DNA from: Escherichia coli
Lineage (GTDB): Bacteria; Pseudomonadota; Gammaproteobacteria; Enterobacterales; Enterobacteriaceae
Assembly: GCF_003790525.1 (NCBI RefSeq)
Contig: NZ_CP033635.1
DNA: 64,000 bases
Strand: one strand, 5' to 3'
Of the stretch, positions 28,901-30,911 are shown piece by piece (positions within the stretch are counted from its first letter, which is position 1; the number at the start of each line of letters is the position of its first letter). Made by a program: the position numbers.

Positions 28901-30911
28901 AACTGCCAAGGGTATCGGCTTCGCAGGTGAAACCATCGTGGTACAGGGTGACGCAGTGGGCGTGGCGAGGATTCATTTCACCAGTGGTAAGCATCGATTC
29001 CATCTGGCTGATAAAGTGCGGGAATGTTTCATCCAGCTTCCGGTATTCGGCGTCACTGAATTTACCGGTGATACTGGCCCGGTCAGCCAAATAATGCAGT
29101 TGGTTGCCCTCCTGCACCAGACGTGCTCCCAGGCGCGGTGTGATATCCCGCTGCAGGCCCCATGTGATGTTACTCATTGATAAACCTCTTTTATTGTCAA
29201 TTCAGGGTAATACTCATCAGGCAGGCATACGGTCCGCTGCGGTCCTGGCGGCGTTCGGCGTATACCACCAGCACGCCGGGAATGTCAGGAACAGCCAGAC
29301 CGGTGTAATGACAGACACTGCCATGCCACTGGTATCTGCCGGTGCAGTATCGAAAAATGCGGGAGGCCGGATGCTGACGGTAAATCGTCATCGCCCGGCG
29401 TTTACTGATAATTCTCATGTCATACCTCAAAGCAGACCGTGTTCAGCGAACGACAATATCTGCGTACCACCGACGATAAGGTGGTCAGGCACACGGATAT
29501 CAACGAGCTGAAGCGCCTGCACCAGACGCTGCGTGATGGTCTTATCTGCCTTGCTGGGCGAGGTGTCTCCGGAGGGATGGTTATGCGCCAGTATCACTGC
29601 TGCCGCATTGAAGTACAGGGCGCGTTTGACCACCTCACGGGGATGTACCTCGGTACTGCTAATAGAACCGGCAAACAGGGTTTCGTGGGCAATCAACTGG
29701 TTCTGCTGGTTCAGATACAGCACCATAAACTCTTCGCGCTCCAGTCCCGCCATTTTCAGTTTCAGCCAGTCGCGGGCAGCCTGAGTGGAGGTGAATGCCA
29801 CGCCTGTTTCGCGCAGGTGTCGGTCAAGCAGCGTTAAGGCGCGTTTTACCGTGCGTTGTGCGGTTAGTGGTAATGCCGGAGCCAGTGGGATAAGTGACTG
29901 TTCCATCAAAAGTATCCTTAATCAATAATGCGCAGAATGGCGCTGGATTCTGGGTGCTGCAGAGAGTAATCCCGCAGCCGGTAATAGTGTTCAGTCATGG
30001 CATCGCATTCGGTGTGACAGGCGTGATGGCTGTATTCAATCAGGCAGACAGCAATACCTGCGGCTTCTGCGCTCATTTCCGCACCATTGCCGTTCATGCC
30101 GTTGAACAGATGCCATTTATCGCCCCCCTCAGCATCAGGGGCCATAAACGCACCGCCATTGCTGAGCGTGTAAAAGGACCAGAGACCACCGCTGTACTCA
30201 TCACAGAAGCGATCCATCCAGGCGAAAATACGGGGTTCCAGCGTTATCCACTGCGTGATAGCACCAAAGTGCAGCGGCCAGAAATCGAGACGCTGCTCGT
30301 CAGGTACTGGTGTTGCAGTGAGGTCAAATTGAGGTTCATTAGCGGACATCAATTCGCATTGCGTTTGTGTCGTCATGGATATTCTCCGTCAATAAAAACG
30401 CCAGCGACGATGGCTGGCGTATGGGAAATAAAGGACATGCAGGGATGATGGATGGGTGTAATCAGGAGGAGGATGCTCTGAGGATGCCGTACTGTCGGAT
30501 ATAACGGTTATGTCCTTCACCTGCATCAGGTTCAAAGCACCAGGCCCGCCAGACCATTCAACCTTCAGAGTCTCGAACCACCAGGCGGAAGTGGCTGCGC
30601 TGGTCATCTTCAATAGCGATATTTTTATACCGTCTGGTAACCGCTTCAGCCTGCTGTCGGGTGAACGGTCCCGGTGGCAACATATGAGATTCAGACATTC
30701 GGTGTACCTTAAAAGCACAAGCCCCTGACGCAGACGCGTCAGGGGCTTTGGGAGTATGCAGGTGTCGGGTGATTGTCAGTAACCGGTTTGTACCTTATAC
30801 AGCCGTAGGGTTTTACTGCCCCGGACAATTTTCACATACAGGGCATTATCTTTCGTGCCTCGCACAAAACCGGCCTGCACATCGCCCTTACAGTCACCAC
30901 TGTAGTGGTCA

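Follow-up and report, generated by a model that had tools for sequence, protein, structure and literature searches.

The CP4-6 and CP4-57 islands of E. coli K-12 are the described elements with which the locus presented here is best compared. They carry a P4-type integrase, a block of DUF905, antirestriction, RadC/JAB, DUF987, YeeU and CbtA genes, and core genes for a GTPase, a DUF932 protein and a DeoR-type regulator; CP4-6 is integrated at thrW beside proA. In K-12 the slot upstream of the DUF905 gene is taken by YkfB and YafY, and in CP4-6 a hairpin followed by TTTTCTTTT serves as the ykfB-ykfF terminator in that slot. The relevant insertion sequence (IS) is ISEc31, an element of 1258 bp with repeats of the TG...CA type, whose orfA and orfB contain HTH_Tnp_1 and rve domains and are connected by a programmed frameshift. 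Where ISEc31 has inserted simply at another locus (L042), it is flanked by a 3-bp duplication, GTC/GTC.

The window (the whole stretch of 64,000 nt from E. coli contig NZ_CP033635.1 that was analysed) contains a CP4-type island which, like CP4-6, is located at the tRNA-Thr(CGT) gene thrW beside proA. Leftward from thrW it consists of an integrase, of the P4 type as in both K-12 islands, a gene of 321 aa in the position held by yfjH in K-12 CP4-57, a plus-strand module of three genes, an IS, a gene fragment with a hairpin, and a DUF905 pseudogene. Further leftward follow the antirestriction, RadC/JAB and DUF987 genes, a YeeU-family antitoxin, a CbtA-family toxin and the chromosomal gene yagU, and the series from DUF905 to CbtA is the same block that is present in CP4-6 and CP4-57. 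In contrast to these two islands, the integrase-proximal part is a PDC-M60-like three-gene module, the GTPase, DUF932 and DeoR core genes could not be detected in the window by tblastn, and the place before DUF905 is occupied by a different cargo gene, which has no relationship to YkfB or YafY.

An earlier note on this DNA had described the fragment next to the IS as the C-terminus of a protein whose 5′ part is missing, the palindrome beside it as a likely terminator, and the whole as island cargo truncated or deleted by the IS. Our best explanation overall is that the locus preserves the dead 3′ end of a cargo gene together with its terminator, left by an IS-associated deletion in the CP4-type thrW island, and we assign this reading a probability of about 0.88. 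The features are listed in Table 1.

Table 1. Features of the IS junction and its surroundings, with positions in the 64,000-nt window.
Feature	Position	Strand	Basis or remark
DUF905 (YkfF-like) pseudogene	30462..30698	minus	in-frame TGA after codon 46; directly downstream of the hairpin
Second terminator-like hairpin	30398..30420		within about 20 nt of the antirestriction gene start
T-rich tail, GTGCTTTTAAGG (minus strand)	30707..30718	minus	also holds the AAGG Shine-Dalgarno-like motif of the DUF905 gene
Predicted terminator hairpin, perfect 13+13 stem, 4-nt loop	30719..30748	minus	27 nt after the stop codon
3′ remnant of a 136-codon gene	30776..30900	minus	translation, amino acid identity, break of the DNA alignment
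IS3-family insertion sequence, 1258 bp, ISEc31-like	30901..32158	minus	inverted repeats, domains, RefSeq
30 nt immediately right of the IS			CAGAGCCAATATATTTATAGCTATGTGGGTGG
Decayed orfB N-terminal relic, IS2 group (IS3 family), frameshifted	32181..32354	minus	abuts the ISEc31-like element
tRNA-Thr(CGT) gene thrW	40327..40402		integration site of the island

Identification of the gene remnant

Translation of the minus-strand frame at 30776-30952 reproduced the peptide of the earlier note exactly. The extent of the gene is smaller than the note had suggested: of the roughly 50 codons placed beside the IS end, about 40 are derived from a gene, and the upstream 18 codons of the open frame lie within the IS terminus. 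The gene-derived part has a length of 125 nt and comprises 2 nt of codon 96, codons 97-136 and the stop codon. An intact parent of 136 codons was found in E. coli PS10-3, where it encodes WP_097512820.1, a 136-aa annotated hypothetical protein, directly upstream of the DUF905 gene. Residues 97-136 of this protein match the remnant with 100% amino acid identity (tblastn, 30898-30776, E = 7e-24), while with the whole protein as query residues 1-96 gave no match anywhere in the window. The view of the fragment as a C-terminus deprived of its 5′ part is thereby borne out, the remnant amounting to 29% of the parent coding sequence.

At the nucleotide level the remnant differs from the PS10-3 allele at four positions, all four of them synonymous. 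The DNA alignment to PS10-3 is collinear through 30900 and breaks at the start of the IS inverted repeat, and homology to all relatives stops at this same point. The closest intact alleles that we found are those of Hafnia paralvei (124/125 nt identical) and Kluyvera intermedia (123/125 nt, together with 76/77 in the intergenic stretch), and over the intact alleles of E. coli, Hafnia and Kluyvera the identity ranges from 96 to 99%. RefSeq has no feature between the DUF905 pseudogene and the IS, and the remnant is consequently unannotated.

The remnant carries no disabling mutation. It retains similarity to the family of its parent and lacks the full-length ORF of that family (132-136 codons, a hydrophobic N-terminus and four cysteines): one of the four invariant cysteines (C99) is kept, and the start codon and the signal-peptide-like N-terminus are missing. 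Having neither a start of its own nor a signal peptide, and being devoid of three of the four cysteines, it is non-functional. As judged from translation and alignment, the fragment is what is left of a genuine gene at its 3′ end, and we have filed it as a remnant, or pseudogene, of the family.

The parent gene and its family

Intact copies of the gene are present in 26 further E. coli genomes, and at least 15 Enterobacterales genera besides Escherichia have it too; 31 other E. coli genomes match a 251-nt region of this locus at 80-95% identity. At 90% identity the family forms 104 clusters, all labelled hypothetical and almost all of 132-136 aa, with hosts including Citrobacter, Hafnia, Serratia, Cronobacter, Yersinia, Buttiauxella, Rahnella and Morganella; a scan of one genome per species yielded 28 family loci. 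Four cysteines (C42, C52, C74 and C99) are invariant in the family alignment. The N-terminus is hydrophobic and ends in ...A-x-A-A-Q, which is probably a signal peptide, and the product is probably a small periplasmic protein.

The sole family match of the parent was to phrog_8968 (5.5e-31), for which the PHROG label is unknown function. A neighbouring gene of 145 aa also matches phrog_8968, which makes it a distant paralogue of the parent. Neither protein could be placed in a family by scans against Pfam and NCBIfam, and a PDB sequence search with the family profile returned no relative. The structure model of the parent is all-beta with low confidence (pLDDT 62), and its fold matches are to generic beta structures only. 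The parent and its paralogue may belong to an unstudied family of periplasmic four-cysteine island proteins.

The homology search proposed in the earlier note, directed at CP4-type islands, did lead to an intact parent, which belongs to an uncharacterised family rather than being a named CP4 gene. YkfB and YafY, the K-12 proteins in the same slot, have no similarity to the parent and were dropped as candidates. A likeness to YfjT, which has nearly the same sequence as YkfB, was not evident on reading.

A predicted terminator at the 3′ end of the parent gene

On the minus strand the remnant is followed, in order, by its stop codon, the 13-bp stem, the T-rich tail, the motif AAGG and the DUF905 start codon, and the hairpin with its tail reads ...CCCAAAGCCCCUGACGC-GUCU-GCGUCAGGGGCUU-GUGCUUUUAAGGUACACCGAAUG. 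The perfect 10+10 core of the palindrome, CCCCTGACGCagacGCGTCAGGGG, is located at 30722-30745. The palindrome seen by the earlier note is therefore real, with a position that had been given one base off (30721-30744) and a stem that extends to 13+13. Nine of the 13 base pairs are G-C, and the hairpin alone folds at -27 kcal/mol. Matches to the palindrome were obtained in 0/100 shuffles that preserve the dinucleotides of the window; the surrounding 96-nt RNA has a fold z of -3.5, and 0/200 shuffles fold as well. A terminator consensus scan flagged the hairpin as terminator-like on the minus (coding) strand, where the sequence after the stem, GTGCTTTTAA, has the five or more T in eight that the scan uses as its criterion. 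An Rfam scan of 27600-32600 reported nothing at the hairpin and only isrC, inside the IS.

Conservation of the pairing was analysed in 21 distinct sequences from relatives. Among the cells of the 11 core pairs, 97.4% hold a standard pair, as compared to 36-52% in a control in which the pairing partner was slid by 1-3 columns. Three pairs are changed on both sides in a compensatory manner: one at the stem base, from G-C to A-U, in two sequences, and two in the clade of Buttiauxella, Yersinia and Serratia, from A-U to U-A and from C-G to U-A. A T-run is present after the hairpin in every version compared. In Serratia liquefaciens (L026) the parent gene is likewise followed by the hairpin and a T-run, and the first window-like stretch 3′ of the hairpin begins upstream of the antirestriction gene, not at the DUF905 gene. 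Since the hairpin is kept there despite a different downstream region, it belongs to the 3′ end of the parent gene.

The hairpin has the structural features by which an intrinsic terminator is defined: a stable GC-rich stem-loop (13 bp and 4 nt here, where the definition asks for a stem of at least 5 bp and a loop of 3-8 nt), a U-rich tract directly 3′ of the stem, a position 3′ of a CDS on the same strand and a structure conserved among orthologous loci. Detection on the coding strand, compensatory changes and the fact that it stays with the parent gene all favour the terminator suggested earlier, and the palindrome reads as the intrinsic (Rho-independent) terminator of the truncated gene, a prediction from which we infer termination in vivo.

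A site acting at the DNA level, such as an operator for a dimeric regulator (for instance of the DeoR-type, YfjR-like kind), a recombination site or a REP-like repeat, is a rather improbable alternative. The palindrome is perfect as DNA and directly precedes the DUF905 start, a suitable place for an operator, and symmetric changes in the half-sites would also preserve a palindrome bound by a protein. However, the divergent clade swaps the identities of two base pairs with the pairing kept, which fits an RNA structure better; the T-run always follows the palindrome on the coding strand; and the unrelated ykfB of K-12 ends in a hairpin of different sequence with a T-run at the same place. Moreover, the palindrome persists though a DeoR regulator gene is undetected in the window. 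A REP-like repeat is further contradicted by copy number, since the 64-kb window holds a single copy of the palindrome even with up to 2 mismatches allowed, and the median count of the 251-nt region is 1 per genome.

Returning to the predicted terminator, its efficiency in the window may be reduced. The T-tract is interrupted (CUUGUGCUUUUAA), and the tail of the window allele, CTTGTGC, has a G where 20/20 compared relatives have a T (CTTTTGC or similar), and termination may therefore be weak. The stem is in addition only 20 nt from the DUF905 start codon. As this gap leaves no room for a promoter, downstream transcription in the intact island would have to pass the hairpin with at least some read-through, and the hairpin may be a partial terminator or attenuator rather than a full stop. 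The terminator between ykfB and ykfF of CP4-6 is alike in its GC-rich perfect stem, 4-nt loop, T-rich tail and distance of 27 nt from the stop codon, although its sequence is unrelated. The window version differs from it in the interrupted T-tract, the T-to-G change and the truncation of the upstream gene.

The insertion sequence and the deletion junction

The IS is bounded by the inverted repeats TGTAGTGG...CCACTACA at 30901-30926 and 32133-32158, which places the boundary with the remnant at 30900/30901. The terminal repeats, TGTAGTGGTCAAGTAATATTGGCCAC and GTGGCCAAATTTACTGTGCCACTACA, are 26 nt long, 81% identical and of the TG...CA type, and the same ends were found in four other copies. Both reading frames are on the minus strand, with HTH_Tnp_1 in orfA (5.8e-13) and rve in orfB (1.8e-28), and RefSeq labels the element as an IS3-family transposase with programmed frameshift. 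In length, frameshifted orfA/orfB arrangement, domains and repeat type it is like ISEc31. Its identity to PGAP-labelled ISEc31 copies is about 94%, indicating an iso-form or sister element, and the window copy differs further in having no 3-bp target duplication, its flanks being CAC and CAG. We read the missing duplication as a sign of rearrangement and not as evidence against the identity of the IS. Among other copies without a target duplication, 2/3 are likewise located at rearranged sites, where a neighbouring gene is truncated or part of another IS lies alongside. Lack of the duplication is common for this element and could not by itself establish a deletion at the present site.

To the right of the IS the flank is equally disturbed. 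In tblastn the relic in Table 1 matches, in two frames and at 42-48% identity, an IS2-like element of the Klebsiella plasmid NZ_CP092397.1, and beyond the relic lies the upstream region of a plus-strand gene of 1091 aa. The presence of an IS2-like relic on the far side of the IS indicates that more than one IS event has shaped the junction. A right flank free of the IS was not found in any of the 16 E. coli genomes that carry the flank. Of 23 contig contexts read for the 1091-aa protein, the six listed all have the same IS junction.

E. coli SMS-3-5 (NC_010498.1) and 15 further complete genomes of the species carry the region with 100% identity. Over 251 nt these 16 carriers do not differ from one another, the junction is the same on both sides, and in three of them a group II intron has later inserted into the IS. 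Of 5426 complete E. coli genomes, 26 contain the first 309 nt of the parent gene, and the 16 carriers of the truncated allele are not among these 26. In PS10-3 the genes upstream of the parent are the paralogue, a DUF4339 gene, a DeoR-type gene, a DUF932 (YfjQ-like) gene and a GTPase gene, and none of these five gave a tblastn match in the window.

These observations bear on an alternative to a deletion, namely that the IS inserted without loss, or mediated an inversion, and that the 5′ half of the gene survives across the IS or beside another copy of it. An inversion would be mechanistically possible, as the IS matches five places in SMS-3-5, and the names of annotated features indicate that IS3-family elements often insert in CP4-type islands. 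Against this, the sequence across the IS consists of the IS2-like relic and then of a promoter region that belongs to an unrelated gene, the whole parent as tblastn query finds residues 97-136 only, and the ISEc31-like copy is without a target duplication. As the 5′ 309 nt are absent from SMS-3-5 and the other 15 junction carriers, the 5′ half was not moved elsewhere by inversion. We consider this alternative very unlikely. The earlier suggestion that the IS had truncated or deleted island cargo is in turn upheld by the same lack of a duplication, by the finding that neither the window nor any of the 16 junction genomes contains the 5′ part, and by the missing neighbour genes.

Coding status of the remnant

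It could be argued that the remnant continues to yield a small protein, for example from a 34-codon ORF starting at GTG 30880 (MQAGFVRG...), through read-through from the IS transposase. The in-frame GTG has AAGGG just upstream, the transposase genes are on the same strand as the remnant so that read-through is plausible, and the remnant, free of disabling mutations, encodes a protein sequence identical to the intact C-terminus. However, such a peptide would be without the signal peptide and without three of the four invariant cysteines of the predicted all-beta domain. A promoter scan of 28300-32600 found no promoter-like sites on the minus strand, RefSeq annotates nothing at the remnant, and the absence of decay is explained by a young event, given the complete identity of the 16 carriers over 251 nt. 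Expression of the remnant as a small protein is accordingly highly improbable. That the fragment is non-coding DNA which happens to hold an open frame, with no homologues, can be practically dismissed: it is short, unannotated and without a start codon of its own, but its 40 residues are 100% identical to a conserved family and the four differences from PS10-3 are all synonymous.

Proposed history of the junction

Taken together, the findings at the junction show a deletion or recombination at the IS that took place once, fairly recently and in this lineage. In intact islands the 136-codon gene, which has its paralogue as neighbour and ends in the strong GC-rich hairpin with a T-rich tail, sits immediately before the DUF905-antirestriction-RadC-DUF987-YeeU/CbtA block. 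The IS2-like element now reduced to a relic would have arrived first, followed at a later step by the ISEc31-like element itself or by a recombination or adjacent deletion involving it. Everything between codon 96 and the candidate-defence module beside the integrase would have been lost in consequence: codons 1-95 of the gene and, if relatives are a guide, also the paralogue, DUF4339, DeoR, DUF932 and GTPase genes. How large the deletion was and in what order its steps came are deduced from relatives with an identity of only about 80-91% over the shared block. No fewer than two IS3-family elements were involved over time, and we infer the order of events, the causal element and the mechanism. 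In the present state the hairpin would stop or reduce read-through from the same-strand IS transposase before it reaches the DUF905 pseudogene and the antirestriction, RadC and toxin-antitoxin genes.

Implications for the island

All components of the locus are of known kinds, namely an IS3-family element, an IS-associated deletion in a CP4-type island, a gene remnant and an intrinsic terminator, and together they are a case of ordinary genome decay. An unannotated pseudogene remnant has now been identified, which is of value chiefly for annotation. The parent family, with no assigned function or Pfam model, represents a small gap in knowledge rather than a surprise.

The hairpin before the DUF905 gene and the second hairpin before the antirestriction gene could be links of a chain of leaky terminators that CP4-type islands have conserved, an idea that we regard as unlikely. 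If it were true, the chain would grade or gate transcription into the antirestriction, RadC and toxin-antitoxin block and would, in this island, insulate the block from IS-driven read-through.

The breakpoint at 30900/30901 marks the place where the thrW island of the SMS-3-5 lineage lost its middle section, a deletion common to 16 complete genomes. It also explains the present make-up of the island, in which a PDC-M60-like candidate defence module is joined by IS debris to an antirestriction, RadC and toxin-antitoxin tail.

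Organization of the island around the junction

Features of the island and of the two comparison loci (positions in the window unless a locus is named)
Feature	Position	Strand	Remarks
CbtA-family toxin / YeeU-family antitoxin	28471-28902 / 28860-29177	-	
Terminator-like hairpin	30398-30420	-	second such hairpin; 8-bp stem, then TTTTATT
DUF905 (YkfF-like) gene	30462-30698	-	pseudogene according to RefSeq
isrC (Rfam RF01387, 'Hfq binding RNA')	31968-32090	-	full-length match, 145 bits
IS2-group orfB relic, N-terminal part	32181-32354	-	frameshifted; cut off by the ISEc31-like element
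Three-gene module	32551-37432	+	proteins of 1091, 149 and 387 aa
145-aa gene	4604-5041, E. coli PS10-3 locus	-	upstream of the parent gene
Group II intron (ltrA reverse transcriptase/maturase)	5482-8965, E. coli TUM1586 locus (NZ_CP135712.1)		

The left end of the island is formed by the toxin-antitoxin pair, which adjoins yagU. A similar block is present in PS10-3, a strain carrying the intact parent gene, but at another chromosomal site, where it adjoins ypjA. Next to the integrase, the three-gene module matches the PADLOC candidate defence system PDC-M60 (A, B and C: 4.5e-55, 2e-35 and 9.9e-23) and is flanked by IS debris on one side and the thrW integrase on the other. The 149-aa protein contains a receiver domain, while the 387-aa protein combines a receiver domain with weak alpha/beta-hydrolase matches. 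The record of the 1091-aa protein carries a precomputed Pfam label (PF27260, 'Y4jQ'), yet scanning of the protein against a local copy of Pfam gave no match.

IS elements and intron

The isrC match lies inside the ISEc31-like element, over the start of orfA, and the RF01387 family here coincides with the leader sequence of an IS3-family transposase. Three of the 16 genomes sharing the junction (TUM1586, EC17CM2 and e1-39) have the ISEc31-like element invaded by a group II intron, which splits its transposase gene. In some genomes RefSeq assigns part of the IS2-group relic to a hypothetical protein of 72 aa.

DUF905 gene and the antirestriction gene

The DUF905 gene is interrupted by an in-frame TGA after codon 46, a position occupied by Arg in PS10-3, whose own copy is likewise flagged as incomplete. 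The second hairpin is located about 20 nt upstream of the start of the antirestriction gene (30376); this gene and the DUF905 gene are preceded by the same layout of hairpin, T-run, RBS and ATG.

A paralogue of the parent gene

The 145-aa gene of PS10-3 is a distant paralogue of the parent gene. Both proteins possess a similar signal-like N-terminus and a common W-C...C motif, and they are assigned to the same PHROG. These islands therefore encode, in tandem, two small cysteine-containing proteins that appear to be secreted.
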